From a virus: a stretch of DNA of 52,972 bases. A program made the position numbers and the translations under genes. Where the stretch lies: the IMG/VR virus record IMGVR_UViG_3300029373_000006. One strand, written 5' to 3'. The notes under the pieces were generated by a model. It was not told where the DNA came from, did no database searches, and saw only the letters and a list, made by a program, of their open reading frames with translations. This document shows positions 1,384 through 49,911 of the stretch, one piece after another (position 1 is the stretch's first letter; the number at the start of each line of letters is the position of its first letter).

Positions 1384-2079
1384 ATGGTGGATTTTTCCGA
1401 TAAGCAACGGGCAATGCTGGCCAAACGAGGTCTTGCGATGCCCGACGGCGGCTATCCCATCAGGAATCGCAAGGATCTTCGCAACGCCATTCAGGCCTAT
1501 GGTCGCGGCAATAGCAAGGACAATGTTCAACGGTGGATCAAGAGGCGTGCCAAGCAACTTGACGCCGAGGACATGCTTCCAGAAAATTGGAGAACTTTGA
1601 TGAACCATAGTGAAGAACTTTATCACTTCGGTGTAAAAGGCATGAAGTGGGGCGTTCGTAAAAAGCGTGACAAACCGAGCAAAGCCGAACTTAATAAACA
1701 GAACGCTAGATATGGTTCTAGGCAAAGAATAGTAGATCGAGCCAGTTACGGCAAGAAAGGCGTTGAGCGCATCAATCGCCGTATGAATAAAGGCCAATCC
1801 CATTTTCGGGCATCTACGACTGAGATGATCCAAAGGGCCACAAAGCAAACAGTTGCGTCTTTGGCTGTGGGTGGTTTAGCGATTGCATCAACTAGAGAAG
1901 GTCAAGCCTTTATGAAAGCAAGTGTTGGAGCTCTTAAGAATGCAATCGGGCATAGCGCCCCATATATAAATTATCTTAGGAGACGATATGGAAAAGGATA
2001 TTCATGGGCTTCTCCGGCTAACGAGGCTTTGAAAGCGATTGGCAATAAGATCATTATCGATAGTGTGACAACAATGTAG
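1384..2079 (+). CDS. GMKWG-family paralog 1. The N-terminal 'AMPDGGYPIRNRKDLRNAIQAYGR' domain is followed by the 'EELYHFGVKGMKWGVRKKR' motif, a basic tract and an Ala/Gly-rich hydrophobic helix.
   Basis: ATG at 1384 lies 14 nt after the TerL stop, with 'ggag' upstream. The motif and its 23-nt core (1636-1658) are shared with five other genes. The 'AMPDG.YPI...DL.NAI.A.GR' motif recalls the N-termini of actinophage scaffold and protease proteins. Confidence 0.6.
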   Translation: MVDFSDKQRAMLAKRGLAMPDGGYPIRNRKDLRNAIQAYGRGNSKDNVQRWIKRRAKQLDAEDMLPENWRTLMNHSEELYHFGVKGMKWGVRKKRDKPSKAELNKQNARYGSRQRIVDRASYGKKGVERINRRMNKGQSHFRASTTEMIQRATKQTVASLAVGGLAIASTREGQAFMKASVGALKNAIGHSAPYINYLRRRYGKGYSWASPANEALKAIGNKIIIDSVTTM

Positions 2080-2087
2080 GAGTAATC

Positions 2088-2609
2088 ATGACTGATGAAT
2101 TGTGGCATTATGGCGTCAAAGGCATGAAGTGGGGCGTTCGACGAGCCGAGCGTAAGACTCGCAAACAGGCCCGTAAAGACGCCCAGGAGACCGCTCAATC
2201 CAAGATGTATTACGGTGAAGGAGCCGGCGTTCGTCGACGCAACATCAATTCCGTGGTCAGGCAGCGTTCAAAAGATCCAACCTACAAGAAGGCTTTTGAC
2301 GAAGAGTACTCAAAACAGGATATGGGCAAGGCTCGCCGTGACGCTGAACGACAGCGCAAACGTACCGATCGCACCGAACCGGTAAAGACCGGAATCGGTC
2401 GTGGTGTGAAGAAGGCTGTTCGTGCAGGAACCAAGGCTGTAACGTTCGCTGCGACGACCGCCGCAGGTGTGGCCGTTTCATACTATATTTCCCATCCGGA
2501 TGAAGCCAAGCGAATGGTTAACACCATTGCCAAGAAGGCATCCAGTACGGTAAATAGGGCTCGGAACGTAGCCCGTGGCGCCCAGTTCCTTCGTAAGATG
2601 GGTCTGTGA
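2088..2609 (+). CDS. GMKWG-family paralog 2, a basic protein with an Ala-rich hydrophobic helix.
   Basis: The N-terminus is 'MTDELWHYGVKGMKWGVRRAERKTRKQARK' with an 'aggag' RBS. The conserved 23-nt core is at 2118-2140. Confidence 0.6.
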   Translation: MTDELWHYGVKGMKWGVRRAERKTRKQARKDAQETAQSKMYYGEGAGVRRRNINSVVRQRSKDPTYKKAFDEEYSKQDMGKARRDAERQRKRTDRTEPVKTGIGRGVKKAVRAGTKAVTFAATTAAGVAVSYYISHPDEAKRMVNTIAKKASSTVNRARNVARGAQFLRKMGL

Positions 2610-2764
2610 TGCGATCCTATCACGAGCTCATCCGGTATTCAGATTTTCTCGACCGGTTCCATTACCTGCAATGTCACGGATCCGTCGGACGTCCGACATT
2701 CGGTTCCGAACGTTGGATGAACCAGCGGTTCTATCGATCACCCGAATGAAAACATGTTCGTGAT

Positions 2765-3013
2765 TTGGTGATCGCTCGGGACAATGGTTTCGATCTCGGG
2801 TGCCCCGATCATCCCATCGCCGGAAAGATCATGATCCATCACATCGAGCCGTTGACTCCGGATTTCATCGAACATGGTGACGATCTGCTGCTCGATCCGG
2901 ACAATCTTATCAGTTGTTCGTTGGCGACACACAACGACCTGCACTTCGGAACCGACGAACGAGCTCGCCCATGGGTCGAACGGAAACCCAATGACACCTG
3001 TCCATGGAGGTAA
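2765..3013 (+). CDS. HNH endonuclease, packaging-associated.
   Basis: The 82-aa ORF reads 'IMIHHIEPL...ATHNDLH', a His-Me finger pattern. Its likely start is TTG or GTG at 2765/2768. It sits next to terminase, as in cos-type phages. Confidence 0.6.
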   Translation: MVIARDNGFDLGCPDHPIAGKIMIHHIEPLTPDFIEHGDDLLLDPDNLISCSLATHNDLHFGTDERARPWVERKPNDTCPWR

Positions 3014-3049
3014 CTTCAAAATGATGGAATTTTATCGGATTGGAGGACC

Positions 3050-3400
3050 GTGATGGATGAAAGCATTCTCAAATCGGTCAAGAAGGTACTCGGACTTGAT
3101 CCCGAATCATCCGATTTCGATGAGGATCTTGTCATATTCATCAATTCGGCGTTCTTCAATCTCAGACAATTGGGAGTTGGTCCCTCGGAGGGATACTCGA
3201 TCACCGGAATCGAAGACACGTGGAGTGAATTCACTGATGACGATCAACTTCTTACTGGCGTAAAGCCATATATTCAGCAAAAGGTTCGTCTTCAGTTCGA
3301 TCCGCCGATCAATTCGTCCCTTGGGCAATCGATCCGGAAGAACATCGAGGAGTATGAATGGCGTCTCAACATCCAAGGGGAAGGAGGTTTCAATGAATGA
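3050..3400 (+). CDS. gp6-like head-tail connector / QLRG-family DNA-packaging protein.
   Basis: 'LKSVKKVLGLDPESSDFDEDLVIFINSA' and 'NLRQLGVG' match the gp6/QLRG pattern. The protein is 116 aa. Confidence 0.5.
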   Translation: MMDESILKSVKKVLGLDPESSDFDEDLVIFINSAFFNLRQLGVGPSEGYSITGIEDTWSEFTDDDQLLTGVKPYIQQKVRLQFDPPINSSLGQSIRKNIEEYEWRLNIQGEGGFNE

Positions 3401-3812
3401 GCTCTATCACTTCGGCGTCAAAGGCATGAAATGGGGCGTCCGTAAGGACCGTAAACGATCCGTAAGTTCCAAGCGTTCGCGATCGGACAGCAAGGATTAC
3501 ACGGAAAGCCGAGACCTTCTCAAGAAGTCCCCGAACAAGTTGTCCAACGCCGAGATCCGTAAGATCAATGAACGACTCAATCTCGAACAACAGTATTCGA
3601 ATCTGACGACAAGTCAGAAGCAGAAAGGCAACCGGTTCATCGACAAGGTTGGTAACCAGATGAAGCAGACCGCGGCCAACGAGGTGTCGAAGCAGTTGAT
3701 GAATGTCGGCAAGATCGTTCTTGGAGCCGGAATCGCCTATGCAGCCAGCAGGGCCCGTGGGAACGGACAGTCATATTCATTCGACTTCGCTCGCAGGCAG
3801 ATCGGTCGGTGA
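3393..3812 (+). CDS. GMKWG-family paralog 3.
   Basis: ATG at 3393 follows an AAGGAGG RBS and overlaps the upstream stop. The N-terminus is 'MNELYHFGVKGMKWGVRKDRKRSVSSKRSRSDSK', with the core at 3419-3441 (2 synonymous changes). A hydrophobic 'VGKIVLGAGIAYAAS' segment follows. Confidence 0.6.
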   Translation: MNELYHFGVKGMKWGVRKDRKRSVSSKRSRSDSKDYTESRDLLKKSPNKLSNAEIRKINERLNLEQQYSNLTTSQKQKGNRFIDKVGNQMKQTAANEVSKQLMNVGKIVLGAGIAYAASRARGNGQSYSFDFARRQIGR

Positions 3813-3818
3813 TGCCTA

Positions 3819-5126
3819 ATGAATGTCGTTACCGATGCATTGGCGCACGCATGGAATGCGTTCGTCAACCCGTCATCCAACTTCCGTCCGTCCGTCGGAT
3901 ATTCCTCGGCGCGTCGTCCGGATACGCGGGTCTTCACCCGAGGCGTCGACCGATCGATCATATCCTCGCTGTACAACCGCATCGCCATCGATGTGAGCGC
4001 CATCGAGATCAGACATTGCCGTATCGACAAGACGACGCAGCAATATCTTGAGACGATCGATGACGGGCTCAACCAGTGTCTGAATGTTGAGGCCAATATC
4101 GACCAATCAGGCCGTGATTTTATCATGAACGTCGTGATGACGATGTGCGATGACGGGACCGCGGCTATGGTGCCGATCGATACCACGGTCGACCCGATGA
4201 ATTCGAATTCGTTCGATATTCAGACCATGCGCGTCGGTCGTGTGGTCGAGTGGTATCCGAGGGCCGTGAAACTGTCGGTATACAACGACGCTCCGAATGC
4301 CGGACAGCGTGAGGAGATCATCATGCCGAAGCGCAAGGTGGCGATCGTCCAGAACCCACTGTACCAGGTGATGAACGAGCCGAACTCTACCTTGCAGCGT
4401 CTGATCAGTAAGCTTAATCAGCTTGACGCAATCGACGACAAGGCCGCCTCTGGAAAGCTCGATCTCATCATCCAGTTCCCATACCAGATCCGGACCGAGG
4501 AGAAGAAGCGTCAGGCCGAAATCAGGCGACAGCAGCTTGAGGATCAGCTTAAGGACTCCGCTTATGGTGTGACCTACATTGACGGTTCCGAGAAGGTTAC
4601 CCAGCTCAACCGAAGCCTCGACAACCACATGCTTCAGCAGATCCAGAACCTGACGACCCAGCTCTACGGTCAGCTTGGCCTTTCCGAGGCCGTGGTGAAT
4701 GGCACCGCCTCTCAGGAGGAGATGCTCAACTACCATAACCGCACCTTGGAGCCGATGATCTCGGCCATCTGTGACGCGCTGAAGCGAACCTTTCTGACCA
4801 AAACCGCCCGAAGTCAAGGACAGAGCATCGAGTTCTTCCGCGATCCGTTCAGGTTGGTTCCGGTCACCGATCTGGCGAACATCGCCGCGGCATTCACGTC
4901 GAACGAGATCATGTCGTCGAACGAGTTCCGTTCGATCCTTGGTTTCGCCCGTTCCGAAGAACCTCAGGCGGATCAGTTGCGCAACGCCAATATCAACCCA
5001 CTCGGTACCGACGTGACCGCGCAGCAGCCAGAATCCACAGAAGAACCAACCCAAGATTCAGCACAGCCGTCTATTCAGGATGTGCTGAACTCCCCCATGG
5101 AAGGAGACAGTCAAAATGGGGTATGA
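3819..5126 (+). CDS. Portal protein (HK97-family-like), putative.
   Basis: The 435-aa product has an acidic C-terminal tail and an 'NEFRSILGF' region like HK97-type portals. It lies between the connector and the protease/capsid gene. Confidence 0.5.
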   Translation: MNVVTDALAHAWNAFVNPSSNFRPSVGYSSARRPDTRVFTRGVDRSIISSLYNRIAIDVSAIEIRHCRIDKTTQQYLETIDDGLNQCLNVEANIDQSGRDFIMNVVMTMCDDGTAAMVPIDTTVDPMNSNSFDIQTMRVGRVVEWYPRAVKLSVYNDAPNAGQREEIIMPKRKVAIVQNPLYQVMNEPNSTLQRLISKLNQLDAIDDKAASGKLDLIIQFPYQIRTEEKKRQAEIRRQQLEDQLKDSAYGVTYIDGSEKVTQLNRSLDNHMLQQIQNLTTQLYGQLGLSEAVVNGTASQEEMLNYHNRTLEPMISAICDALKRTFLTKTARSQGQSIEFFRDPFRLVPVTDLANIAAAFTSNEIMSSNEFRSILGFARSEEPQADQLRNANINPLGTDVTAQQPESTEEPTQDSAQPSIQDVLNSPMEGDSQNGV

Positions 5127-10428: not shown

Positions 10429-10809
10429 ATGAGGGTGAATTTCGAAGTGTCTGGCGGTTTCACGAAGACCGAGCGGTTTCTCAACCGCATGAAGCGTCGT
10501 GAATACCTGAACGTGCTCGATGAGTTCGGCCGTGACGGCGTTCAGGCACTTCGAAATGCCACCCCGGTCGATTCCGGTGCCACGGCCGAGGCGTGGGATT
10601 ACGAGATCAAACGCACCCGTGATTGCACCGAGATCGTTTGGATCAATTCCAACATCAACGACGGCGTTCCGATTGCTGTCATCCTCCAGTACGGTCACGG
10701 CACCGGTACCGGAGGCTATGTCCAGGGTCGTGATTACATCAACCCGGCGATCCGACCCATATTCGATAAGATAGCCGAGAAGGCTTGGAAGGTGGTGACT
10801 TCTGCATGA
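10429..10809 (+). CDS. HK97 gp10-family protein (neck / tail completion).
   Basis: 'ATPVDSGATAEAWDYEI...VILQYGHGT' matches the gp10 'PVDTG...YA..VE.G' pattern. Confidence 0.45.
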   Translation: MRVNFEVSGGFTKTERFLNRMKRREYLNVLDEFGRDGVQALRNATPVDSGATAEAWDYEIKRTRDCTEIVWINSNINDGVPIAVILQYGHGTGTGGYVQGRDYINPAIRPIFDKIAEKAWKVVTSA

Positions 10810-13800
10810 GCAGCATCGACGAACGCGTCGTAAAGATGCGTCTTGATAATAGCCAATTCGAGCAGGGTGTCAATAAGACCTCCGGTCTTCTCGGTAAGCT
10901 CAAGCAGGCATTAAACCTCGACAAGTCGGTCGAATCGATCAGCAATGTCGATAAGGCCGTAAACGGTGTCAGCTTCAATCCGCTGACCTCCGGTCTTCAG
11001 GGAGTCCAGTCCGGCTTTAACGCCATGGGCGCCGTGGCGTTCTCTGTGCTCAACCGCATGACCAATGCGGCCATTGATGCCGGGAAGAGTATCACCAACG
11101 CCCTGACGGCCTCGGTACGTGACGGTTTCGCCGAATACGAGACCCAGATGAATGCCGTGCAGACGATTCTGGCGAATACCCAGTCAAAAGGATCGACGAT
11201 CGACGACGTCAATTCGGCACTCGACACGCTGAACACCTACGCCGACAAGACCATCTATAACTTCACGGAGATGACGAGGAACATCGGCACCTTTACGGCT
11301 GCCGGTGTGGACCTTCAGACATCGGTGGATTCGATCAAGGGCATCGCCAACCTTGCGGCTGTTTCCGGTTCGAGTTCCGCTCAGGCCTCTCAGGCCATGT
11401 ATCAGCTGTCCCAGGCAATCGCCGCGGGAAAGGTCCAGCTTATGGACTGGAACTCGGTGGTCAACGCTGGTATGGGCGGCGAAGTCTTCCAGAATGCCCT
11501 GAAGCGCACCGCCGAGCACTTCGGCACTAACGTCGACGGCATGATCAAGAAGTACGGATCATTCCGCGAATCGCTGACCAAGGGCGAATGGCTCACCACC
11601 GATGTCCTTACGGAGACGTTGAAGCAACTTTCCGGAGCATATACAGAAGCCGATCTGGTTTCTCAGGGCTACACCGAGGAACAGGCCAAGCAGATCGTCC
11701 AGTTGGCCAATACGGCCGAAGGCGCCGCAACCGACGTCAAGACGTTCTCTCAGTTGATCGATACGACAAAAGAAGCGTTGGCGTCTGGTTGGACTAATAC
11801 TTTCGAAATCATATTTGGCGACTTCGAAGAAGCCAAGGAGCTATGGTCTGGTGTTGCAGACGTTATTTCCGATGTCGTCAACCGATCATCGGAATCGAGA
11901 AACAATCTTCTCCAGGGATGGAAGGATCTCGGTGGAAGAACTAAGCTGATCGAAGGCCTTACCAACGTTTTCAAATCCCTCGGTAAGGTGGTATCAACCG
12001 TCGGTAACGCGTTTCGGAAGGTGTTTCCTCCGACGACGTCTCGGCAACTTATGGATATTACCGAGGCGTTCACTTCGTTCACAGAAAGCCTCATTCCTTC
12101 CGAATCGACGCTAAATAAGATCGGTCGAGTCGCTGAAGGCGTCTTCTCAGTCTTTGATATCGGCGTGCAGGCCGTTAAAGCCGTCGGAACTGCTTTCGCC
12201 ACGGCATTCGGATCCGACAGCATGGGCGGTTTGCTTGATAATCTGCTCGATATCGCCGCCGGATTCGGAGATTGGCTTGTCGGACTTGATAATTCGATCA
12301 AGCAGTTCGGTATATTCGAGGGTGCGGCCAAGGCGGTCGGTTCCGCCATCAGCGGTGTGCTTGGGGTCTTCAGCTCCTTCACTGATGGAATCTCCTCAAT
12401 GGGATCGGCCGTCGGATCGATCGCTTCGACAATTGGTAATACTCTTGGCGGAGCGTTCGAACGGGTCAAGAACGTCATCAGTGATGTCTTGACGTGGATC
12501 ACCGACAACATCTCCGGTGGTGATATTTTCGCTGGCCTCGCCGGAGGTGGCATCTTCCTGGCCGCACAGAAGATCGGCGGGGCGTTCGATAAGATCAAGA
12601 AGGTCTTTGAGGACCTCTTCGGTAATGGGGCTGAAAAGCTCAAGAAGGGTGCTGGCGTATTCGATGAGATCCTAGGCGGTCTTCAAGAATCGTTGAACGC
12701 ATTCACGGGAAGCGTCAAGGCTTTTACTCTTGTAGAGATCGCCGGATCCATCGCGCTGCTTGTTGACTCGATGGAGAAGATCGCTGCCCTCAGTGGTGGC
12801 GAAGTCGTTGGCGGCGTCTCGGCCATCGGCGGCCTGATGACCGAGCTTAACATTAGTCTTAAATCGATCACGAAGACGATGAAGGGCGCTAAGACCACCG
12901 ATCTCATCAAGACCGGTGCGGCCCTCATAGAATTCGCGAAGGCTGTGGACATGTTGGCCAACGCCATGTCCACGATCGGTAATCTCAATTGGGACGAGAT
13001 CGCCAAGGGTCTCACCGGCATGGGCGGCGCCATGACGGAGCTCGTCGCTGCCGCCAAGGGTCTGAGCTACGCCAAGGTCGACCTCAAGACGGCAGGCTCG
13101 CTCATCGCCATGGCCCAAGCGGTCAAAATGGTGGCAGATCCGCTCAAGAAGCTCGGTAACATGAGCTGGGATCAGGTCGGCAAAGGCCTATCCGCCATGG
13201 GTGGAGCCCTGACGGAGATGGGCACGGTCACCGGTCTGCTCGGCCGATTCGGCAAGCACAACATTTCCGCTGCTGTCAGCATGGTCATTACGGCCAAATC
13301 CCTTGGTGATATCGCAGATGCATTCGGGTCGTTCTCTAGCTATGACTGGGGCGAGATCGGACGCGGTCTTACCGCCATGGGCGGCGCTTTGGGCGAAGTC
13401 GGGCTCGTTACCGGCGCCTTGGGCAAGATTGCAGGATTCTCTGGAATTCTAGGTAGCGGTTCCATTTTCATTACAGTGCAGTCCCTTGGTGATATTGCCG
13501 AAGTATTCGGTGAATTCACTCAATACGACTGGGGTGAAATCGGACGTGGTCTGACGGCCATGGGCGGTGCTCTCGGCGAGGTCGGACTCGTCACTGGGGC
13601 CCTTGGAAAGCTCGCGGGCTTCTCAGGCATCATCGGTGGCGGATCGATCCTTATCACTGCTCGGGGTCTTGGTGACATCGCATCGGCGTTCGGATCGTTC
13701 ACTCAATACGACTGGGGCGAGATCGGACGCGGTCTTACCGCCATGGGCGGCGCTTTGGGCGAAGTTGGCGTCATATCCGGCGCTTTGGGTAAACTCGCGA

Positions 13801-16388
13801 GTTTGTCCGGAATCATCGGATCTGGCTCCATAGTTCTTACTGCTAAGGGTCTTGGGGATATCGCCAAGGCGTTCAATTCATTCTCTCGGTATAGCTGGGA
13901 TGAGATCGGACGCGGCCTGGTTGCCATGGGCGGTGCTCTTGGCGAAGTCGGGCTCGTTAGCGGTGCATTGGGTAAACTCGCGGGTTTGTCCGGAATCATC
14001 GGATCTGGCACGATCATCCTCGCCGTGCAAGGTCTTGACGAGATTGCCCGAACGTTCAATTCATTCACTCAGTATAATTGGGATGAGATCGGACGCGGCC
14101 TTGTTGCCATGGGCGGTGCCATGGGCGAGGTCGCCGTCATATCAGGAGCGACAGGTGCCCTGACCGGAATCGCCGGCCTTATGGGCGCGGGAACGATCAC
14201 TCTTGCCTCTCAGGGTCTTACCGATATCGCGACGGCATTCGGTAAATTCACCAAATTCAATTGGGATGAGATTGGGCGCGGCCTCGCCGCCATGGCCGGT
14301 GCCTTGGGCGCAACAGCCCTTGGTTCATTGCTGAATACGCTTTCCGGTCTCGGCGCAGGAGCCATATCCACGGTTGCCGTTCCTCTTGGTCAGTTGGCCG
14401 ATTCGGTCAAGAAATGGTCTGGGGTTACCGTTCCCAGCGATTTGGCGACCAGTCTCGGATCTTTGGCATCCGGGGTCATGAAATTCACGCTCGGCGGTAT
14501 TGGAGCAGGAGCGTTGTCGACCGCAGCCCCGGGCATGGTCCAGATGGCCAACGCGGTCGCGAAGTGGTCGACCATCAAATTCCCTTCTGAGATCGAAGGG
14601 AATCTCAAAGCTCTCGCCAATGGTGTGAAGGCGTTCACGTTCGCTTTCGCCGGTGGATGGTCGATGGACGCGGTTGTTGGCCCCTTGGGACAATTGGCAT
14701 CCGCGGTGAATAAGTGGAAGGGCGTGACGATTCCCGCTGGAATCGAGAGCAATCTCACCGGTCTCGCGAACGGCGTGAAGGCGTTCACGTTCGCTTTCGC
14801 CGGTGGATGGTCGATGGACGCGGTTGTTGGCCCCTTGGGAAAATTGGCCGGAACCGTCAAGAAGTGGAATGGCGTGACGATTCCCGGTGGAATCGAGAGC
14901 AATCTCGCCGGTCTCGCGAACGGCGTAAAGGCGTTCTCGCTTGCGTTCGTCGGTGGATGGTCGTTGGGCGCCATTACCGGACCTCTCGGAAATTTGGCAG
15001 GTGCCGTCAAGAAGTGGAATGGCGTGAAGATTCCCGGTGGTATCCAGGGTAATCTCACCGGTCTCGCGAACGGCGTGAAGTCGTTCACGGGTATTGGTTC
15101 CGGGATCACGGAATCCATGTCGAATGCCGCTTCCGGGGTTCGAGCCATTGCCACAGCGGCTACCAATCTGTCGTCGGCGAACCTTTCCGGAGTCTCGACC
15201 CAGATTTCGACGTTCGTAAGTTCGTTGAACACCACGCAGTCGATTACCAGCACATTACCGGCTGATATTTCGGCGTTCGCAACTCAGTTGAGTTCTGCCA
15301 TGGTCACGTTGGGTAATGTGGTGTTGACCAATGCCGCCACTATCGGATCGGCTTTCTCGTCGCTTCGTACCCAGATAAGCACTGCGACTTTCGGACTCGG
15401 ATTGATCGTTTCTTTGAATATGAGTTCCGCATCAAACGCGGTATCCTCTGGAGCGAACATGATCTCGAGTGGATCAAGCGCCATCGGAGCTGCATTCAAT
15501 CGAATGACGTCGATCGCAAGAAGCCAGATGACGGTATTTTCCAATACCGTTCGTTCGTCCCTCACTCGGGGGGCTTCTTCGGTCCGATCCTCTGTGCCTA
15601 AATTCCTTTCGTCTGGCAAGCAGGTAACTGAATCGTTGATCAATGGTATGAGGAATGGACTCGATCGTATTCCAACCATGTTCAATTCGTCAATCAATTC
15701 CGCGGCTTCAAACCTTCGATCGTTTAGAAGTTCGTTCTATTCGGCCGGATCCTATGTCGCCGAAGGATTTGCATCAGGCATCAATTCTCAGGTAACTGTC
15801 GCAGCCGAAGCTGCCGCACGACTCGCAAACGCAGCGTCCTTAGCGGCAAAGAAATCGCTCGACATTCATTCGCCTTCGAAGGTGTTTGGATGGATCGGTG
15901 AAATGACGGTTGATGGATTTGTTAACACGGTTGACGGAATGGCAACCGATGTTAGAAAGTCCGGATACGGAATGGCCGAGTCGGTTATCAATGGATTCAA
16001 TGAACTCGACATGTCAAATATTTCGGATCCGTCAATTCGTCCGGTGATGGATCTATCCATGGTTAGACGTCAGGCATCCGACTTGTCTTCCATGCTGAGC
16101 ACTTCGACGAATCCGATCAAGGCCGACATTGATTTCATTGGTCGTTTGGATCGTCAAAATGGTGGAGATCATCAGGCAAAGATGTTCGATCGTTTGATTT
16201 CCGCAACCGATAAGAACGCAAAGGAACTATCGGATCTTCGTGGGGATCTTTCGCGATACAACGATTCGATTGCCGGCCAGGAAACGGCCGTGTATGTCGA
16301 TGGCAAGAAACTAGCCAGTAGCATCGCCAAACCGATGAATCAGCAGCTTGGCATTCGATTGAAGAGAGGAAGTCTGTCTCGAATATGA
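10806..16388 (+). CDS. Tail tape measure protein.
   Basis: 1861 aa from the ATG at 10806. It is Gly/Ala-rich and helical with two internal tandem-repeat arrays, in the expected position. Confidence 0.8.
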   Translation: MSSIDERVVKMRLDNSQFEQGVNKTSGLLGKLKQALNLDKSVESISNVDKAVNGVSFNPLTSGLQGVQSGFNAMGAVAFSVLNRMTNAAIDAGKSITNALTASVRDGFAEYETQMNAVQTILANTQSKGSTIDDVNSALDTLNTYADKTIYNFTEMTRNIGTFTAAGVDLQTSVDSIKGIANLAAVSGSSSAQASQAMYQLSQAIAAGKVQLMDWNSVVNAGMGGEVFQNALKRTAEHFGTNVDGMIKKYGSFRESLTKGEWLTTDVLTETLKQLSGAYTEADLVSQGYTEEQAKQIVQLANTAEGAATDVKTFSQLIDTTKEALASGWTNTFEIIFGDFEEAKELWSGVADVISDVVNRSSESRNNLLQGWKDLGGRTKLIEGLTNVFKSLGKVVSTVGNAFRKVFPPTTSRQLMDITEAFTSFTESLIPSESTLNKIGRVAEGVFSVFDIGVQAVKAVGTAFATAFGSDSMGGLLDNLLDIAAGFGDWLVGLDNSIKQFGIFEGAAKAVGSAISGVLGVFSSFTDGISSMGSAVGSIASTIGNTLGGAFERVKNVISDVLTWITDNISGGDIFAGLAGGGIFLAAQKIGGAFDKIKKVFEDLFGNGAEKLKKGAGVFDEILGGLQESLNAFTGSVKAFTLVEIAGSIALLVDSMEKIAALSGGEVVGGVSAIGGLMTELNISLKSITKTMKGAKTTDLIKTGAALIEFAKAVDMLANAMSTIGNLNWDEIAKGLTGMGGAMTELVAAAKGLSYAKVDLKTAGSLIAMAQAVKMVADPLKKLGNMSWDQVGKGLSAMGGALTEMGTVTGLLGRFGKHNISAAVSMVITAKSLGDIADAFGSFSSYDWGEIGRGLTAMGGALGEVGLVTGALGKIAGFSGILGSGSIFITVQSLGDIAEVFGEFTQYDWGEIGRGLTAMGGALGEVGLVTGALGKLAGFSGIIGGGSILITARGLGDIASAFGSFTQYDWGEIGRGLTAMGGALGEVGVISGALGKLASLSGIIGSGSIVLTAKGLGDIAKAFNSFSRYSWDEIGRGLVAMGGALGEVGLVSGALGKLAGLSGIIGSGTIILAVQGLDEIARTFNSFTQYNWDEIGRGLVAMGGAMGEVAVISGATGALTGIAGLMGAGTITLASQGLTDIATAFGKFTKFNWDEIGRGLAAMAGALGATALGSLLNTLSGLGAGAISTVAVPLGQLADSVKKWSGVTVPSDLATSLGSLASGVMKFTLGGIGAGALSTAAPGMVQMANAVAKWSTIKFPSEIEGNLKALANGVKAFTFAFAGGWSMDAVVGPLGQLASAVNKWKGVTIPAGIESNLTGLANGVKAFTFAFAGGWSMDAVVGPLGKLAGTVKKWNGVTIPGGIESNLAGLANGVKAFSLAFVGGWSLGAITGPLGNLAGAVKKWNGVKIPGGIQGNLTGLANGVKSFTGIGSGITESMSNAASGVRAIATAATNLSSANLSGVSTQISTFVSSLNTTQSITSTLPADISAFATQLSSAMVTLGNVVLTNAATIGSAFSSLRTQISTATFGLGLIVSLNMSSASNAVSSGANMISSGSSAIGAAFNRMTSIARSQMTVFSNTVRSSLTRGASSVRSSVPKFLSSGKQVTESLINGMRNGLDRIPTMFNSSINSAASNLRSFRSSFYSAGSYVAEGFASGINSQVTVAAEAAARLANAASLAAKKSLDIHSPSKVFGWIGEMTVDGFVNTVDGMATDVRKSGYGMAESVINGFNELDMSNISDPSIRPVMDLSMVRRQASDLSSMLSTSTNPIKADIDFIGRLDRQNGGDHQAKMFDRLISATDKNAKELSDLRGDLSRYNDSIAGQETAVYVDGKKLASSIAKPMNQQLGIRLKRGSLSRI
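12960..14340 (+). repeat. About 8 tandem ~180-nt (60-aa) repeats inside the tape measure gene ('..Y.WGEIGRGLTAMGGALGEVGLV.GALGKLAG.SGIIGSGSI.IT..GLGDIA.AFG.F..').
   Basis: Near-identical nucleotide blocks recur, for example 'gactggggcgagatcggacgcggtcttaccgccatgggcggcgctttgggcgaagt' at ~13345 and ~13710. Confidence 0.8.
14380..15110 (+). repeat. About 5.5 tandem ~129-nt (43-aa) repeats inside the tape measure gene ('GPLG.LA.AVKKW.GVTIPGGIE.NL.GLANGVKAF.FAFAGGWSMDAVV').
   Basis: A ~90-nt stretch is nearly exactly duplicated at 14610-14700 and 14745-14835. Confidence 0.8.
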
Positions 16389-24751: not shown

Positions 24752-24795
24752 AGGCGCTGCGAAAACGTGGCGCCTATATTTTTTTTTTCGAAAGG
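24752..24795 (+). terminator. GNRA-loop hairpin + T10 tract; the same hairpin recurs at 25979-26012.
   Basis: 'taggcgctgcgaaaacgtggcgccta' followed by 'tattttttttttcg'. Confidence 0.5.
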
Positions 24796-30670: not shown

Positions 30671-31203
30671 CCAGTAATTCATCGCCATTTTTCAACGCAT
30701 CGTATATTCAATGGCTACGTCGTCGTGTGAATTTCGATGAATACGTCGATCTCAGCATGTCTCTTGCGGCCATACCATTCCATTCCAGTGTCATGATGGA
30801 TCGGAATCGGATATCCGACGGCGAGTCGTTACGTGATGTATACACACGCCGAACCGGATATTCGTTGGTTAGCGGTATTCGAAGATGCTCGGTCCTTGAG
30901 TTCCTCGTCGCCTTGGCCGAACGGGTCAACGATGTACTGGCCATCGTCCCGGTCGACGCGGCGTTCTCCATGTTCCTCGAAAACATGGATCTGACACGAT
31001 GCTCGGATGACTGGTTTCTCAACCAGAGAGATCCTGAGTGTTATATTCAGGACCGATGCGACATCATGATGGATCGACAGTACCGACCTGACGGATCGGG
31101 CGGCGGACTCTTCATCGTTCATGATGACAAGGATATCCGCCCATCCGAATGGTGGTGGCAAATGCAATATTGGCTCAACGAACAGTATATCCCCGATATG
31201 TAA
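30667..31203 (+). CDS. Hypothetical protein.
   Basis: It overlaps the upstream stop. 178 aa. Confidence 0.35.
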   Translation: MTSNSSPFFNASYIQWLRRRVNFDEYVDLSMSLAAIPFHSSVMMDRNRISDGESLRDVYTRRTGYSLVSGIRRCSVLEFLVALAERVNDVLAIVPVDAAFSMFLENMDLTRCSDDWFLNQRDPECYIQDRCDIMMDRQYRPDGSGGGLFIVHDDKDIRPSEWWWQMQYWLNEQYIPDM

Positions 31204-31214
31204 AGGAGGCGAAG

Positions 31215-34097
31215 ATGGATCAAGTGCAGGTGCGTGTCAAAAAGACAAACAAGGGCCATGAATCCATATTCGCCGATCCGAAGATGCGAGGGTATCGCGA
31301 TCTGCTCGTCAAAGGCGGGTCGTTTTATGCGGTGTTCGATCCGGATAGTCATCTCTGGTCACAGAACCTTCAACGCCTTGGCGAGCTGATCGACCGTGAT
31401 ATTCAGGAGTTCGCCGACTCGTATGAGTCTCCAGACGGTAATGAAGCGACCTGCATGCTTATGCAGAACACCTCCAATGGTTGCTGGAACAGGTATATTT
31501 CCGGACTGCGCAATCTGGCCGACAGTGATGCGGTGCTCAATCAGCGAATCATATTCGCCAATGACACTCCGAAGCGCGAGGACTACGCCACCGTGCAACT
31601 GGAATACGCGATATCCGAGGGAGACACCTCGGCATACGACCGGCTCATGAATACGCTGTATGCCCCATCCGAACGCGAAAAGCTCGAATGGGGCATCGGC
31701 GCCTTGGTCGACGGTAATGATATTCAACGCATCCAGAAGATGTTCGTCATCTACGGTGATCCAGGAACCGGAAAGTCGACGATTCTCAATATCATCGAGA
31801 TGCTCTTCCCTGGATACATCGCATATTTCAATGCAGAGGAACTCGGCAAGGGATACCAATTCAGTACCGCGTCCTTCAAGAACTCTCCGCTCATCGGTAT
31901 CCAGACCGATGGCGATCTGAGTCACATGTGGGACAACACCCTGCTTAATCAGATCGCTGCGCATGAGAAGATCGTGGTCAACGAAAAAGGTGTCAAACAG
32001 TACACCGTTCCGCTGAAGACGATGCTATTCATGGCAACGAATAAGCCGGTGAAGATCACTGACGCCAAGTCGGGCATCACAAGGAGACTGATTGATATTT
32101 ATCCGACTGGCAACACGTTGAAACCGGATGATTATTTCGACTGCATGAAACAGATCGGATTCGAATTGGGTGCCATTGCCTATCATTGTCGTGAGGTCTA
32201 CAGGAAGCTCGGGGTCAACCGATATTCCCAGTATCGTCCAACGGAGATGATCGCCAAGACGAATGATATTTACACATTCGTTCAGGACAACATCGACCTC
32301 ATGGACATCGATGAGCCAGTGCGTCTGACCGATCTGTGGCGTGCATACAAGGAATGGTGCGAGGAAGCCCACATCACCGACGTCATGAAACGCTCCGAGT
32401 TCATGTTCGAACTGGCTTCATATTTCGAGAGCATGGATCGAGGGGCGAGCAAGGCAGTTACCTATCATGGATTTCAACGAGACAAATTCGAATCGAGAAT
32501 CGTTGACTCTTCTGACCGACATGCTCGAACATCTGACGACCATGTCTCGTGGCTTCGACTTGCTAAAACGGACAGTCGATTCGACGAACTCTGTCATGAT
32601 TGCCCTGCGCAATATGCTAGAGACGACGAAAGCGGATCCCCGGTTGCCAAATGGGCCCAAGTCAGCACCACACTCAAAGACCTCGACACCAGTCGACTTC
32701 ATTGGGTTAAGGTCCCGGAAAACCACATCGTCATCGACTTCGATATTCGAGGAGAGGATGGCGAGAAATCGCTTCAGGCCAATCTCGAGGCGGCCCGCAA
32801 GTTCCCTCCGACCTATGCCGAGGTGTCCAAGAGCGGACAGGGATTACACCTCCACTATATTTACGATGGAGATGTATCCCGACTCAAAAACCTTTACGAC
32901 ATCCATGTCGAGATCAAGGTTTTCCGAGGCAATTCGTCGCTACGGCGTCTGCTCTCACGGTGCAACGATCATGAGATCTCCCATATTTCAAGCGGCCTTC
33001 CGTTGAAAGGAGAAAAGTCCGTGATCAATCAGAAGGAACTCAAGGACGAACAGCATCTACGCAATGTCATCAAGAAGGCTTTGCGCAAGGAATGTTGTCC
33101 TGGGACCAAGCCGAGCGTCGAGTTCATCAAGAAGCTCATGGACGAGATGTATGAGTCGGGTAAACCATACGACGTCACCGACATGCGCAATGAGATATTT
33201 GATTTCGCTTTGCGGTCGACGCATTGGTCGGATTATTGCATCGTTCTGGTGAACGAGATGAAGTTCAAGTCCGATGATATTCCGAAAGGAAGTGATCCGA
33301 AGAACGCCGATATTCTCACCTTCTTCGATGTCGAGGTCTTTCCGAACCTCTTCATGGTCTGCTTCATGAAAAGCGATTCGGACGTCGTCAAGACATGGAT
33401 CAATCCTCAGCGGCAGAACATCATGACACTACTCGATGAGAATCTGGTGGGATTCAACAACCGCAAGTACGACAATCATATTCTCTGGGCGTGGGGTGTC
33501 ATGGGATACAACAACGCCCAGTTGTATGATCTGTCGATGCGGATCGTCAGCGGAAACAAGAACGCCATGTTCGGTCAGGCATACAATGCATCCTACACGG
33601 ATATTTACGACTTCTCCGCCAAGAAGCAGTCGTTGAAGAAGTGGGAGATCGAATTAGGTATCGACCATCATGAGTTAGGCATGCCATGGGACCAACCGGT
33701 TCCCGAGGACAAATGGCCGTTGGTGCAATCATATTGCGAGGATGACGTCAGGGCCACCAAGGCCGTGTTCGAGCACCTCAAGGAGGATTTCACCGCACGC
33801 CAGATGCTGGCCATGCTCAGTGGCCTGACGGTCAACGACACCACCAACACCCATACCGCACAGATCATATTCGGGAACAACAAGCATCCGCAGTCGGAAT
33901 TCAACTTCACCGACCTTTCGGATATTTTCCCGGGATACACCTTCGACCGATATGCGTCAAAGGACAAGAAGTCCCAATACATGGGCGAGTATCCTGGAGA
34001 AGGCGGATACGTCTGGGTGAACGGCATGGAGAACGGTGATGTCGATCAAGATTACAATAATATTCCGCATCCATGGGAAGTGAGAAGCAATGGGTAG
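31215..34097 (+). CDS. Replication polyprotein: P4-type SF3 helicase + AEP primase-polymerase-like domain + DEDDy 3'-5' exonuclease. It ends at an in-frame TAG.
   Basis: Walker A 'VIYGDPGTGKST', Walker B 'IGIQTDGD' and motif C 'LFMATNKP' are present, as is 'LWRAYKEWCEE'. The PrimPol-like region reads 'HIVIDFDIRGEDGE...SGQGLHLHYIY'. Exo motifs are I 'FFDVEVF', II 'YDNHILW' and III 'YCEDD'. Confidence 0.6.
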   Translation: MDQVQVRVKKTNKGHESIFADPKMRGYRDLLVKGGSFYAVFDPDSHLWSQNLQRLGELIDRDIQEFADSYESPDGNEATCMLMQNTSNGCWNRYISGLRNLADSDAVLNQRIIFANDTPKREDYATVQLEYAISEGDTSAYDRLMNTLYAPSEREKLEWGIGALVDGNDIQRIQKMFVIYGDPGTGKSTILNIIEMLFPGYIAYFNAEELGKGYQFSTASFKNSPLIGIQTDGDLSHMWDNTLLNQIAAHEKIVVNEKGVKQYTVPLKTMLFMATNKPVKITDAKSGITRRLIDIYPTGNTLKPDDYFDCMKQIGFELGAIAYHCREVYRKLGVNRYSQYRPTEMIAKTNDIYTFVQDNIDLMDIDEPVRLTDLWRAYKEWCEEAHITDVMKRSEFMFELASYFESMDRGASKAVTYHGFQRDKFESRIVDSSDRHARTSDDHVSWLRLAKTDSRFDELCHDCPAQYARDDESGSPVAKWAQVSTTLKDLDTSRLHWVKVPENHIVIDFDIRGEDGEKSLQANLEAARKFPPTYAEVSKSGQGLHLHYIYDGDVSRLKNLYDIHVEIKVFRGNSSLRRLLSRCNDHEISHISSGLPLKGEKSVINQKELKDEQHLRNVIKKALRKECCPGTKPSVEFIKKLMDEMYESGKPYDVTDMRNEIFDFALRSTHWSDYCIVLVNEMKFKSDDIPKGSDPKNADILTFFDVEVFPNLFMVCFMKSDSDVVKTWINPQRQNIMTLLDENLVGFNNRKYDNHILWAWGVMGYNNAQLYDLSMRIVSGNKNAMFGQAYNASYTDIYDFSAKKQSLKKWEIELGIDHHELGMPWDQPVPEDKWPLVQSYCEDDVRATKAVFEHLKEDFTARQMLAMLSGLTVNDTTNTHTAQIIFGNNKHPQSEFNFTDLSDIFPGYTFDRYASKDKKSQYMGEYPGEGGYVWVNGMENGDVDQDYNNIPHPWEVRSNG

Positions 34098-34145: not shown

Positions 34146-35243
34146 ATGGTCGTAAAAGAAGAACATCTCGGAGGCATGTTCGGAAATGTCGGACTGCTCG
34201 ATGTCTCATCCATGCATCCTAGTTCGATCGTGGCCATGAATCTCTTCGGTCCATATACCGAACGGTTCGACGCCATCCGACAGGCCCGTATCGCCATCAA
34301 GCATAAAGACTTCGATCGATGCCTTGATATTTTCAGGAAATTCGTTCCCGAGGAACGCATCAAGGATCTCGAACCTGTGCTCAAGGGTGAGGATTCCAAG
34401 GCGCTGGCTCAGGCTCTGAAAATCGCCATCAACGCGGTCTATGGCCTGACCAGCGCCTCGTTCCCCACCCGGTTCAACGATGCGGCCAATCCGAACAACC
34501 GCAATCTCGACAACAAAGTCGCCAAACGAGGCGCCTTGTTCATGATTGCGCTCAAGCACAAGGTACAGGAGCTCGGATATACCGTGGTCCACATCAAAAC
34601 CGATTCGATCAAGATCGCCGATGTGGACCACGATATCATCGACTTTGTTACGGCAATGGGCAAGCAATACGGGTACAACTTCGAATTGGAATCCATTTAT
34701 GACAAGATGTGCATCGTCAACAAGTCCACCTACATCGCTCATTCGGCCTACGGCGAGCACTGTGGTGAGTGGACCGCTACTGGGTTGCAGTTCCAGGTTC
34801 CTTATGTCTTTAAGACCCTGTTTACCAAAGAGCCCGTCGGTCTGGAGGATTTCCGAGAGACCAAGTCGGCTCAGTCCAATATTTTCCTCGATTTCAACGA
34901 GGGACTTGGACCGGACGAGCATCATTATAGCTTTGTTGGTAAGGTTTCGGCTTTTTCCCCCGTCAAATCGGGATGCGGAGGAGGTCTACTGGTACGTGAG
35001 AACAGCCGAGGCGGTTACGATGCGGTATCTGGAACAAAAGGGTATCGCTGGAAGGAACATTCGATCATCCGAGACAATGGCCTTTCTTCAGAGATTGACC
35101 GACGATATTATGAGCGATTGGCCGATGATGCCATCGACACCATCGAACAATACGGATCGTACGAATGGCTGATCGACGAGAGTAGTCCATATTCCTCGCC
35201 GAATCCGGCATCGAACGATCTCATGAAGGAGCTGGCTGCATGA
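34146..35243 (+). CDS. Family-B DNA polymerase polymerase domain, in frame with the upstream exonuclease ORF.
   Basis: Motif A 'LLDVSSMHPSSI' (DxxSLYPS-like), motif B 'KIAINAVYG' (KxxxNSxYG), motif C 'VHIKTDSI' (DTDS) and KxY 'NKSTY'. It has its own 'gatatttggaaaggagca' RBS. Confidence 0.65.
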   Translation: MVVKEEHLGGMFGNVGLLDVSSMHPSSIVAMNLFGPYTERFDAIRQARIAIKHKDFDRCLDIFRKFVPEERIKDLEPVLKGEDSKALAQALKIAINAVYGLTSASFPTRFNDAANPNNRNLDNKVAKRGALFMIALKHKVQELGYTVVHIKTDSIKIADVDHDIIDFVTAMGKQYGYNFELESIYDKMCIVNKSTYIAHSAYGEHCGEWTATGLQFQVPYVFKTLFTKEPVGLEDFRETKSAQSNIFLDFNEGLGPDEHHYSFVGKVSAFSPVKSGCGGGLLVRENSRGGYDAVSGTKGYRWKEHSIIRDNGLSSEIDRRYYERLADDAIDTIEQYGSYEWLIDESSPYSSPNPASNDLMKELAA

Positions 35244-42001: not shown

Positions 42002-42412
42002 ATGACATTCTATCTGGACCATATCTCATACGACAACGTCAACGATCTCATCGGAGGAATCCGGAGGCTGGTCGCCAAAGGCTACCGCATTGTCGACGTC
42101 TCGTCGGGCATTGAGATGCATCATCCGGACACCGATGTTTCGATTGAACTATATCTGCTGATCAACCCGCTTGACCAGCAGGAGGATGAGAACAAGAGAT
42201 TCAATCATGGCCTCTTCAACCATGTCCGTGGCGGCGTCCACGACCTCGCAATGGCATTTATTGACCATTGGACCGATTACGGAACCGACAATCATATTTC
42301 TGACGAAGGAATAGCTCAATGGTATTCATTGACCATTGGACCGATTACGGAACCGACAATCATATTTCTGACGAAGGAACAAGTTAATGAAATACTACGA
42401 TATTCCCGATGA
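42002..42412 (+). CDS. Hypothetical protein whose 3' end carries a 50-bp direct duplication.
   Basis: It follows a 'gatattttcgaaaggagaaatcatg' RBS. The duplication spans 42261-42310 and 42329-42378. Confidence 0.35.
   Translation: MTFYLDHISYDNVNDLIGGIRRLVAKGYRIVDVSSGIEMHHPDTDVSIELYLLINPLDQQEDENKRFNHGLFNHVRGGVHDLAMAFIDHWTDYGTDNHISDEGIAQWYSLTIGPITEPTIIFLTKEQVNEILRYSR
42261..42378 (+). repeat. Exact 50-bp direct repeat (ttgaccattggaccgattacggaaccgacaatcatatttctgacgaagga), two copies 18 nt apart.
   Basis: The copies are identical and lie 68 nt apart (not a multiple of 3). Each ends in a 'gaagga' RBS followed by ATG 8-9 nt downstream (42319 and 42387). Confidence 0.85.
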
Positions 42413-45173: not shown

Positions 45174-45494
45174 ATGAGTTTGGAACGCGACTTCCAACGA
45201 AAGGTCATCAAGGAGATCGGAAAACGTCTTCCAGGATCGCATGTGCTGAAGAACGATCCTAACTATATTCAGGGAATCCCCGATCTTCTTGTTTTATATA
45301 AGGATCGATGGGCCGCCCTTGAGGTCAAGAAGAGTGCTGACGCTAAGCATCAGCCGAATCAGGATGACTACGTGGCACAGATGAATGACGATTCGTTCGC
45401 GGCGTTTATCTATCCCGAGAACGAGGAATACATTCTCGACAAGCTTCAACAGCACATGACCAAGTCCCATATTTCCACGGAGGTTGCATCATGA
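45174..45494 (+). CDS. VRR-NUC domain nuclease.
   Basis: 'GIPDLLVLYKDRWAALEVKK' is a PD-(D/E)xK core in the VRR-NUC arrangement. It lies near the SNF2-like helicase, a typical pairing. Confidence 0.5.
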   Translation: MSLERDFQRKVIKEIGKRLPGSHVLKNDPNYIQGIPDLLVLYKDRWAALEVKKSADAKHQPNQDDYVAQMNDDSFAAFIYPENEEYILDKLQQHMTKSHISTEVAS

Positions 45495-46123
45495 TGCGTT
45501 TCAATGATCATCACAATCTTGAGGGCCTTCATGCCTTCATGGGAGCCAGCAAGCATTCCTGGCTTCGTTACGATGACGATCATATGGCCGATATGTTCCG
45601 ATCGTCCCTTGCGGCACAACGCGGAACCGAGCTGCATGCCCTTGCGGCTGATCTCAATAAACATCGTGTGGCTCTGCCAAAGACCCATCTGACGTTGAAC
45701 GACTTTGTCAATGATGGCCTGCACTATCGCATGTCGCCCGAAGTGGTGTTATATTTCTCACCGAATTGTTTTGGCACCGCAGACCTCATCGGATACGACG
45801 ACAAGAAGAAGCTGTTGCGCATCTTCGACCTCAAGACCGGAAGCGGCGAAGTCAAGCACTTCGATCAGTTGTACATCTACGCTTCGCTGTTCTGTCTTGA
45901 ATACAAAGTCAAGCCGATGAACCTTCAGTTCGACCTTCGTCTCTATCAGAACGATCACATCAAGATCGCCACCAACGCCGATCCAAAGTACATCAAGCTT
46001 GGACCGAACACTGATATTTATGAAGAGGTCAGCCCGGATGAGATTGCACACATCATGGATCGAATCCAGCACTTCGATCAATTGATCAACAAGCTGCGTG
46101 CCGAGGAATCGGAGCAGTGGTGA
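45491..46123 (+). CDS. PD-(D/E)xK (RecB/Cas4-like) exonuclease.
   Basis: 'TADLIGYDD...LRIFDLKTG' plus the 'QLYIYA' QxxxY motif. Confidence 0.5.
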   Translation: MMRFNDHHNLEGLHAFMGASKHSWLRYDDDHMADMFRSSLAAQRGTELHALAADLNKHRVALPKTHLTLNDFVNDGLHYRMSPEVVLYFSPNCFGTADLIGYDDKKKLLRIFDLKTGSGEVKHFDQLYIYASLFCLEYKVKPMNLQFDLRLYQNDHIKIATNADPKYIKLGPNTDIYEEVSPDEIAHIMDRIQHFDQLINKLRAEESEQW

Positions 46124-46148
46124 TGATATTTTCAGGAAAGGCAACGTC

Positions 46149-49563: not shown

Positions 49564-49911
49564 ATGGGGCGACGTAAGAAGCTCGACGGATCGTCTTCCT
49601 CTCAGTTCTCGCCCGCTTCCAATCCGGAGGAACGCGAGAATCAGATGATTTCGCTCGCCGTCAACCTTGCCGAGCAACAGCTTCGCGAGGGGACGGCTTC
49701 ATCTCAGGTCATCGTGCACTATCTCAAGCTTGCTTCGACTCGAAACAAGCTTGAAGAGGAGAAGATCAAGTATGAGACGGCCATGCTTCAGGCCAAGAAG
49801 GATGCGCTGAACAAATCTGGTCAGCTCCAGGAGCTCATGGCCAATGCTTTGGATGCATTCCGTTCATATTCCGGAAACACAGAAGAGAGCGAGGTATCAA
49901 ATGGAAGATGA
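49564..49911 (+). CDS. Terminase small subunit, putative.
   Basis: A basic N-terminus 'MGRRKKLDG' and a 115-aa helical body, at the head of the packaging and structural gene block. Confidence 0.35.
   Translation: MGRRKKLDGSSSSQFSPASNPEERENQMISLAVNLAEQQLREGTASSQVIVHYLKLASTRNKLEEEKIKYETAMLQAKKDALNKSGQLQELMANALDAFRSYSGNTEESEVSNGR

Follow-up and report, generated by a model that had tools for sequence, protein, structure and literature searches.

Protein constraint, codon preference and recombination between copies as the likely source of a near-identical 23-nucleotide core in a phage DUF7211 gene cluster

Introduction

Why should six genes whose bodies are mostly unalignable carry nearly the same 23 nucleotides (nt)? 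This question is raised by the virus record IMGVR_UViG_3300029373_000006 of IMG/VR, whose whole stretch of 52,972 nt is called the window here. A pattern search of the window finds the 23-mer AAAGGCATGAAGTGGGGCGTTCG, the core, as an exact match at positions 1636, 2118, 49931, 51688 and 52137, and a near match at 3420. The six copies lie in six genes, named b1 to b6 in the order of their coordinates, and all six proteins match Pfam DUF7211, a family without an assigned function. An earlier note on this DNA, made from the letters of the sequence, had taken the conservation of third codon positions as a sign of either ongoing gene conversion or a role at the level of the nucleic acid. It named a recombination site for cassette shuffling, an RNA structure and an internal initiation site as candidates.

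It is likely that the near-identical DNA results from protein constraint, codon preference and recombination between the copies, with no separate DNA or RNA signal. Three layers make up the proposed explanation. In the first, the peptide of the most constrained part of the DUF7211 tag holds 18 of the 23 bases, which are dictated by the amino acids (Met, Trp, two Lys, two Gly, Val and Arg). In the second, position-specific codon preferences (AAA before GG, AAG before TG and GTT before C) set the modal 23-mer. In the third, the direct repeats recombine by homologous recombination or gene conversion, as is seen in relatives and as we infer for the window genome. Recombination would have homogenised the last polymorphic sites in the lineage of the window and its relative L122. 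In sister phages its junctions fall inside the motif, and it deletes, duplicates, inserts and replaces whole cassettes while keeping the frame. The agent may be general homologous recombination, by the host RecA or by an unrecognised phage annealing protein, acting on identities of 23-44 nt. Identities of this length are close to the minimum for efficient homologous recombination.

Six Copies of One Coding Core

The five exact copies occupy 1636-1658 (b1), 2118-2140 (b2), 49931-49953 (b4), 51688-51710 (b5) and 52137-52159 (b6), at the positions that the earlier note had given. The sixth copy, in b3, carries the two synonymous differences that had been described (AAG to AAA and GTT to GTC), but it spans 3420-3442 and does not start at 3419, a shift of one nucleotide. 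No match to the core pattern appeared in 100 dinucleotide-preserving shuffles. The six copies all read in frame on the + strand, encode KGMKWGVR, and are embedded in a longer motif, (D/E)ELYH(F/Y/H)GVKGMKWGVR(R/K). The codons directly 5' of the core differ among the copies (GGT/GGC/GGA and GTA/GTC/GTT), in agreement with the variable flanks that had been reported. Codon usage in the window genome is 26% for AAA, 37% for GGC and 22% for GTT; both AAA and GTT, which the core uses, are minor codons. Given this usage, the probability that five copies match at all six degenerate positions is P = 2.6e-8. The five-fold identity of the core is real and non-random, and it exceeds what codon usage predicts.

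The longest exact runs between copies are 44 nt for b1 and b4 (1615-1658 in b1), 30 nt for b2 and b6, and 29 nt for b2 and b5. The gene bodies that follow the motif are mostly unalignable. The earlier description of otherwise unrelated coding sequence needs a qualification, for b4 and b5 share 82% identity over 78 nt. This resemblance and the 30-nt run of b2 and b6 are what one would cite for a recent duplication, in which young copies have not yet diverged at the core sites. Such an origin is hardly credible. Besides being mostly unalignable, the bodies are spread over different PHROGs, among them phrog_35934, a virion structural protein family. The same set of paralogues is found in divergent relatives. 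Within the window, the synonymous difference between paralogues is 0.55 per codon in the leader (the seven codons before the core) versus 0.13 in the core, a contrast that already contradicts recent duplication. In other genomes, the core difference between paralogues is 0.23-0.47.

Synonymous Sites in Related Phages

The synonymous sites were followed in a close clade of 23 relatives (L121-L143), retrieved by a portal search and 92-98% identical in the portal. All of them are metagenomic contigs and are phylogenetically non-independent. The 103 motif copies of the clade were sorted into orthologue groups by their gene bodies. The exact 23-mer is present in 19 of the 103 copies: in five of six in the window, in three of five in L122, and in zero to two copies in every other genome. 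Counted by orthologue group, it is found in 22% of b2, 33% of b4 and 40% of b5 orthologues. For b1 it is confined to the lineage of the window and L122, for b6 to the window, and b3 orthologues never carry it. The second Gly codon is GGC in 55 clade copies and GGT in 47, and the second Val codon is GTT in 49, GTC in 32 and GTA in 12.

Between orthologues of different genomes, codons for the same amino acid differ at a rate of 0.21-0.22 in the core and 0.21 in the seven leader codons. The portal gene gives 0.167 overall and 0.21 for its Gly and Val codons only. Core synonymous sites evolve at the background rate between orthologues, which argues against any sequence-specific DNA or RNA function of the core. 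This bears directly on the idea that the core is a selected nucleic-acid element, be it an RNA structure, an internal start, a protein-binding or pac site, or a target of site-specific recombination. Five identical copies with two minor codons would suit such an element, as would the clustering of the copies around terL. So would the family-wide preference for AAA at the first Lys and AAG at the second (62 to 8) and for GTT at the second Val in high-GC genomes, although codon-context bias explains part of this preference. Against such an element speaks, in addition to the background rate of synonymous difference and the 19 exact copies among 103, that the number and position of the copies vary among sister phages. 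This variation, together with that of the synonymous sites, also led to the rejection of a pac site.

The RNA and initiation candidates fare no better. RNA folding of the six core regions is no better than that of shuffles (z -1.2 to +0.9) and the structures differ among copies. An alignment fold of the core regions contains 0 compensatory or covarying pairs, and Rfam has no match in the window. The AAAGG that the earlier note had singled out sits 1 nt from the motif ATG. A spacing of 1 nt is too close for a Shine-Dalgarno site. The motif Met never varies in the peptide, no matter which codons flank it, and the real starts 9-10 codons 5' of the core have GGAG-type ribosome-binding sites 5-8 nt before them. 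An internal start at the motif Met is implausible. Neither an integrase nor an invertase was detected among the 20 open reading frames (ORFs) of the window that were scanned. We consider a selected nucleic-acid element very unlikely, and the nucleic-acid-level role, the RNA structure and the internal initiation site of the earlier note are not borne out.

Codon Preference at the Core

Outside the close clade, the family provides 130 distinct copies of GVKGMKWGV. In these, AAA at the first Lys is combined with AAG at the second 62 times, versus 8 times for the reverse. Among the 58 copies of high-GC genomes, GTC encodes the first Val in 52, yet GTT encodes the second Val in 37. Codon context in the window genome points the same way. 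Lys before GG is AAA in 52% of cases versus 17-37% elsewhere, Lys before TG is AAG in 80%, and GTT makes up 34-38% of the Val codons before C or CG versus 14-24% elsewhere. These context biases make the window 23-mer the modal variant family-wide. A degenerate scan of IMG/VR returned 178 motif matches with widely variable synonymous sites; their per-site majority is the window 23-mer, and no other variant is as frequent as this one (14 of 178).

Could codon-context or translational selection, acting on each copy independently and without exchange, be enough? The directions of the biases and the identity of the 23-mer with the family consensus at each site both favour this explanation, which we nevertheless regard as improbable. 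By rough arithmetic, with GGC assumed at ~0.4, any one copy would be this 23-mer only ~2% of the time. Sister genomes are split about 50:50 at the second Gly and at the second Val. Context bias by itself is unable to yield five identical copies, and it leaves unexplained the junctions, the divergence step and the conversion patch described below. Exchange among copies, which contradicts this explanation, is already visible in relatives.

Recombination Junctions at the Motif

In two relatives, L133 and L124, a deletion has removed exactly the 482 bp from the b1 core to the b2 core. The junction joins a b1 side that ends in ...CACTTC to a b2 side that reads CGACGAGCC, that is, it lies within GGNGTNAAAGGCATGAAGTGGGGCGTNCG. 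The b1 extension and leader (...GAAGAACTTTATCACTTC) continue into GG(C/T)GTCAAAGGCATGAAGTGGGGCGT(T/A)CGACGAGCC of b2. The crossover falls inside a shared stretch of ~29 nt, and the resulting ORF, a fusion of 247 amino acids (aa), is intact in L133. In L122, a tandem duplication has a unit of 449 bp that runs from the b5 core to the b6 core. A remnant of b2 (L123 at 5563, L129 at 7131) lacks the equivalent of window 2137-2576, with one end of the deletion inside the core. Wherever cassettes differ, blastn matches to the window break off at the motif (at 1658, 1666 or 2140) and resume at 2084-2112.

The cassettes themselves come and go. Slot B, behind the b1 extension, holds bX, b1 and b2 in L138, b1 and b2 in the window, bX and b2 in L125, b2 alone in L133, b1, bKAQ and b2 in L134, and b1 with the b2 remnant in L123 and L129. 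Slot A is as variable as slot B, and at least seven architectures per slot are present among about 20 genomes. Damaged copies also occur in relatives. The changes GMKRG (Trp to Arg) and motif Met to Ile (ATA) are found among L121 b1 (about 5160), L122 905, L124 about 8100 and L128 4211, and the copies of L124 and L128 have frameshifts.

Since all relatives are assembled contigs, the junctions might be artefacts of metagenome assembly at short repeats. The L122 duplication lies at the end of a contig that stops at a motif, and L124 contains a frameshift; both would suit this idea. However, three sources (JGI/IMG, Logan and ENA) together provide 8 contigs with the exact L133 fusion protein, and further contigs encode other 247-aa variants; the 482-bp deletion is therefore not an assembly artefact. 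The two genomes with the deletion are about 7% apart, and the rearranged ORFs stay in frame. Repeats of 23-44 nt are shorter than the usual final k-mers of assemblers, which also weighs against an artefact. The chance that assembly produced the junctions is slight.

A step in divergence at the motif tells the same story. In 95 pairs of orthologues with at most 3 differences per 237-nt body, divergence rises from 0.002-0.008 differences per nt downstream of the core to 0.016 within it; on the other side it reaches 0.061 over the last 21 nt before the core and 0.21-0.35 still farther upstream. A different leader stands on the same body in 37 of these 95 pairs. The step means that the two sides of the motif have different histories, with the boundary inside ORFs. 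Concerted evolution of paralogues shows as a slight but significant effect. Paralogues differ by 0.390 per core codon within a genome versus 0.423 between genomes, a result reached by 2 of 2000 label permutations, a count that is not an exact probability. In the leader, the same permutation test finds no such likeness of paralogues within a genome.

One probable conversion can be traced in the window itself. Window b1 and L122 b1 show 0 differences over 240 nt of body and two differences, 3 nt apart, just before the core. These sites read GGC GTT in L122 and GGT GTA in the window. Both window states match window b4, which produces the 44-nt identity of b1 and b4, and within the b1 group GGT at this Gly is found in the window only. 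Window b1 has probably undergone a micro-conversion, for which b4 is the probable donor.

Junctions inside shared sequence and different histories on either side are the marks of a homologous-recombination joint and of concerted evolution. Site-specific recombination of the shufflon or invertase type does not fit: synonymous sites drift at the background rate, the repeats are direct, the junctions fall anywhere in a stretch of ~29 nt, and no recombinase was found in the 20 ORFs scanned. As read from genome comparison, DUF7211 arrays are recombination-driven cassette loci, and the comparative evidence for this is new. Two of the earlier suggestions thus gain support. Gene conversion and cassette shuffling are backed by the deletion, duplication, insertion and replacement junctions, the divergence step, the core likeness of same-genome paralogues and the two-substitution patch in the window. 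The earlier note had asked whether related phages have recombinant junctions at the core, and they do. It had also held that synonymous divergence in relatives with no breakpoints at these sites would count against its reading; here the outcome is divided, for the relatives show both the divergence and breakpoints at the core.

Several observations weigh against the explanation by constraint, preference and recombination. The codon preference is larger than context bias predicts (GTT at the second Val of high-GC genomes is at 64%, with 37% expected), its size in low- and high-GC genomes is partly unexplained by that bias, and weak selection on the core at the nucleotide or translation level may still act. 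The clade-wide effect of concerted evolution is small and comes from permuting labels among related, non-independent metagenomic contigs. The scan of 20 window ORFs recognised no recombinase, integrase or invertase, only an exonuclease (45491-46123) and an endonuclease. Finally, few conversions are needed on variants that were already common among b2, b4 and b5 orthologues, and retained ancestral states could account for some of the identity. Starting from modal variants, one to three short conversions suffice for the state of the window. This makes the five-fold identity less remarkable, and it was noticed because the window genome is an outlier.

The DUF7211 Family and the Role of the Tag

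The six window proteins match DUF7211 (PF23847) with 40.9-42.7 bits and E-values of 4e-11 to 1.3e-10, against a profile of 25 positions with a gathering score of 27 bits. With the real starts, the motif occupies residues 2-22 in five of the six. Many phages have 3-8 genes with the DUF7211 motif. Records of cultured phages with the motif number 239 and contain it at 786 places, nearly all of them annotated as hypothetical; its carriers are phages of Arthrobacter, Gordonia, Streptomyces, Rhodococcus, Curtobacterium, Microbacterium and Faecalibacterium as well as Lactococcus 1706-like phages. ReqiPoco6 has seven copies between terL and portal, including that of gp020, a virion structural protein according to its annotation. 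Two motifs share one ORF in gp07 of Lactococcus phage 1706, which is also annotated as structural. No relevant paper was found in a search of the literature on DUF7211 or the GMKWG motif.

The motif is closely linked to the head module. It lies upstream of the portal gene in 51 of 68 loci found through portals of 47-58% identity, and 99% of motifs sit upstream of portal, within ~6.5 kb. Conversely, 58 of 64 loci found through the motif contain a homologue of terL, portal or the protease-capsid fusion. Six motif residues, H, G, G, M, W and G, do not vary among 76 diverse members, and the stretch of 30 residues that follows the motif is strongly basic (median net charge +6). Family-wide, a median of 24 residues separates the motif His from the stop codon before it. 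Domains were recognised in some of 76 diverse longer members: the papain-fold toxin domain Gln_amidase in four, the ADP-ribosyltransferase exoenzyme domain ADPrib_exo_Tox in one and GNAT in one. No toxin domain is recognisable in the six window proteins. With a 48-aa tag query, only short fragments were retrieved as homologues, and these are uninformative on domain architecture.

Two further observations concern the family. RNA ligase is the annotation of two motif-bearing Gordonia phage genes, gene 16 of Aflac and gene 12 of Tanis. Two, three or internal DUF7211 motifs in one ORF are found in L011 (6126-7784), L045 (2668-4755), L158, L074, L036, L239 (phage 1706 gp07, 2501-3889) and L201 gp015, as if cassettes had been fused in frame.

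What might the tag do? By analogy, it may send variable cargo into the procapsid or virion, including, elsewhere in the family, proteins with toxin or enzyme domains; we give this a little less than an even chance. The array would in that case amount to a stock of accessory proteins that are carried in the virion and rapidly reshuffled. Against this stand the nature of its evidence, which consists of annotations in two cultured phages, gene position and analogy, and the low confidence of the AlphaFold2 model of b4, which is poor overall (mean predicted local distance difference test score, pLDDT, of 50.7) and below 50 in the tag. A PDB sequence search with b4 gave no match. The motif is internal or repeated within one ORF in some phages, which leaves a docking site or a protease-processing site as open as an N-terminal tag.

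A bolder proposal, which we offer tentatively and think rather doubtful as a whole, is that DUF7211 is an undescribed virion-targeting (or processing) tag of a supergroup that comprises 1706, ReqiPoco6, Streptomyces-BI and FP_oengus. It would load hypervariable injected accessory or effector proteins, and its coding DNA would be held near one version as a portable recombination joint. Under this proposal, the pattern AAA...AAG...GTT would reflect selection for exchangeability or for avoidance of spurious out-of-frame starts, beyond context bias.

Comparison With Known Systems

By homology, the six proteins belong to Pfam DUF7211 only and not to any of the systems compared here. The internal proteins of T4 and other T-even phages, which carry a capsid targeting sequence (CTS), are similar in several respects. 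They too are small, basic and otherwise unrelated proteins with a common short N-terminal peptide, their genes lie in the head module, and the gene set is highly diverse among closely related phages; in the window clade, the seven or more architectures per slot occur at the portal identity of 92-98% given above. Some DUF7211 relatives have enzyme or toxin-like domains, as does T4 Alt. The short N-terminal peptide on unrelated head-module proteins and the hypervariable gene set among close relatives are both found here. The differences are considerable. The DUF7211 motif is unrelated to the CTS by eye, longer and far more conserved, and homology is not claimed. It is internal or repeated in some phages, and its head module, with a protease-capsid fusion, follows the 1706 type. 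Cargo of the CTS type would lie inside virions, with a tag that is needed for encapsidation and removed by the prohead protease; for DUF7211, presence in virions is suggested at the level of annotation by ReqiPoco6 gp020 and 1706 gp07.

Polymorphic toxin loci, such as CdiA with its VENN motif, the Rhs core and the MuF-toxins of temperate phages, combine a conserved N-terminal module with variable C-terminal modules that turn over by recombination at the junction. The Gln_amidase and ADP-ribosyltransferase toxin domains on some DUF7211 proteins recall these loci. Unlike them, the six window proteins have no toxin domain, let alone a C-terminal one, and the conserved part is only ~20 residues long. 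Concerted evolution, as in bacterial tuf genes and pilE/pilS, resembles the present case in that paralogues of the same genome are more alike than expected and in its short conversion patches. Here, in contrast, the tract is only the motif of 20-45 nt, the clade-wide effect is weak, and orthologues are much closer than paralogues (0.19 versus 0.35). In the tail-fibre adhesins of T-even phages, conserved coding motifs known as His boxes act as homologous-recombination joints at which variable segments are swapped (Tetart et al., 1998, as cited in PMC3012670). Those motifs lie inside one gene and adhesin domains are exchanged, whereas the DUF7211 motif heads separate genes and whole cassettes are added, removed or replaced.

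The Gene Cluster and Its Genome

The ends of the window, 1-123 and 52850-52972, are identical over 123 nt. This overlap indicates a circular assembly of 52,849 bp that was cut inside terL, so the six copies form one cluster of ~6.5 kb around that gene. The 5' part of terL (52477-52972, +) continues across the circular junction to 1370, and the 3' part (24-1370, +) completes a protein of 580 aa that matches 580-aa cluster members named terminase large subunit. The order of the cluster is b4, a dCTP-deaminase-like ORF, b5, b6, terL, b1, b2, HNH, a small structural-protein homologue, b3, portal and the protease-capsid fusion. The portal gene (3819-5126, +) was the anchor for fetching relatives, and homologous modules are present in ReqiPoco6 and phage 1706.

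All six genes are on the + strand. Gene b1 (1384-2079, 231 aa) has GGAG 7 nt before its ATG and consists of an N-terminal extension of 77 residues (1384-1614), the DUF7211 motif, which falls at residues 94-112 of a longer ORF, and the body. The exact b1 protein is present on 43 contigs. It shares a 90% cluster with 580-aa terL proteins, an oddity that may reflect an artefact of clustering or, in some genomes, a read-through fusion. Part of its extension (window 1409-1551) is absent from L126, L128, L132, L139 and L143, an indel that is not associated with the motif. Gene b2 (2088-2609, 173 aa), whose core is the partner of 1636 in the L133 and L124 deletion, has DUF7211 at residues 2-21, matches phrog_6291 over its full length (E 5e-41) and is present on 23 contigs. 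Gene b3 (3393-3812, 139 aa), directly upstream of portal, has an N-terminal DUF7211 and GGAGG before its ATG, and is present in 24 of 24 clade genomes. Gene b4 (49901-51124, 407 aa), with DUF7211 at residues 4-22, is homologous to ReqiPoco6 gp021; a search with the full-length protein returned only homologues of at least 89% identity. Gene b5 (51661-52098, 145 aa) starts within the end of the dCTP-deaminase-like ORF (51111-51668), overlapping its stop codon. Gene b6 (52107-52460, 117 aa) is found only in the window, L122 and L142.

A megablast of the phage collection matched only terL, at 72-75% identity, and a portal scan of genome contigs found nothing closer than 55%, with the distant relatives mostly in metagenome-assembled genomes of Clostridia.

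Other features of the genome lie apart from the cluster. A 944-aa protein (46098-48932, +) matches phrog_4291, named 'RNA-dependent RNA polymerase', with E = 0. With its GADFDGDNVLV sequence (DxDGD motif) and N-terminal matches of the helix-turn-helix type, it looks like a single-subunit two-barrel RNA polymerase of the YonO/QDE-1 type, as judged from its sequence. The DNA polymerase family phrog_4210 is split over adjacent ORFs at 31149-34097 and 34146-35243 (+), which cover profile positions 1-950 and 953-1291; the first also matches primase families. An ORF of tape-measure size (10785-16388, 1867 aa) contains about eight tandem repeats of 183 nt (12990-14310) and three repeats of 150 nt (14592-15089). 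The leader TGATATTTTCGAAAGGAGCAAACCATGAA is repeated 5' of several genes (37056, 40674 and 41979, and weaker at 24780 and 26007), and an element with a hairpin and a T-run, CCATATAGGCGCTGCGAAAACGTGGCGCCTATATTTT, occurs three times (24302, 24746 and 25978). There is an exact 35-nt repeat in two copies (23965 and 24336) and a 68-nt tandem duplication at 42249-42384.

Concluding Remarks

A striking nucleotide repeat can be explained here without a new element, and the locus offers a testable case of how phages reshuffle accessory genes. A tag of ~20 residues with codons of low degeneracy supplies 23-44 nt of identity. Also new is the lead that DUF7211 may be a virion-associated tag, and it is a good candidate for capsid loading. 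If this is true, it would offer a way to load foreign proteins into these phages and to discover anti-defence or toxin proteins that they inject.

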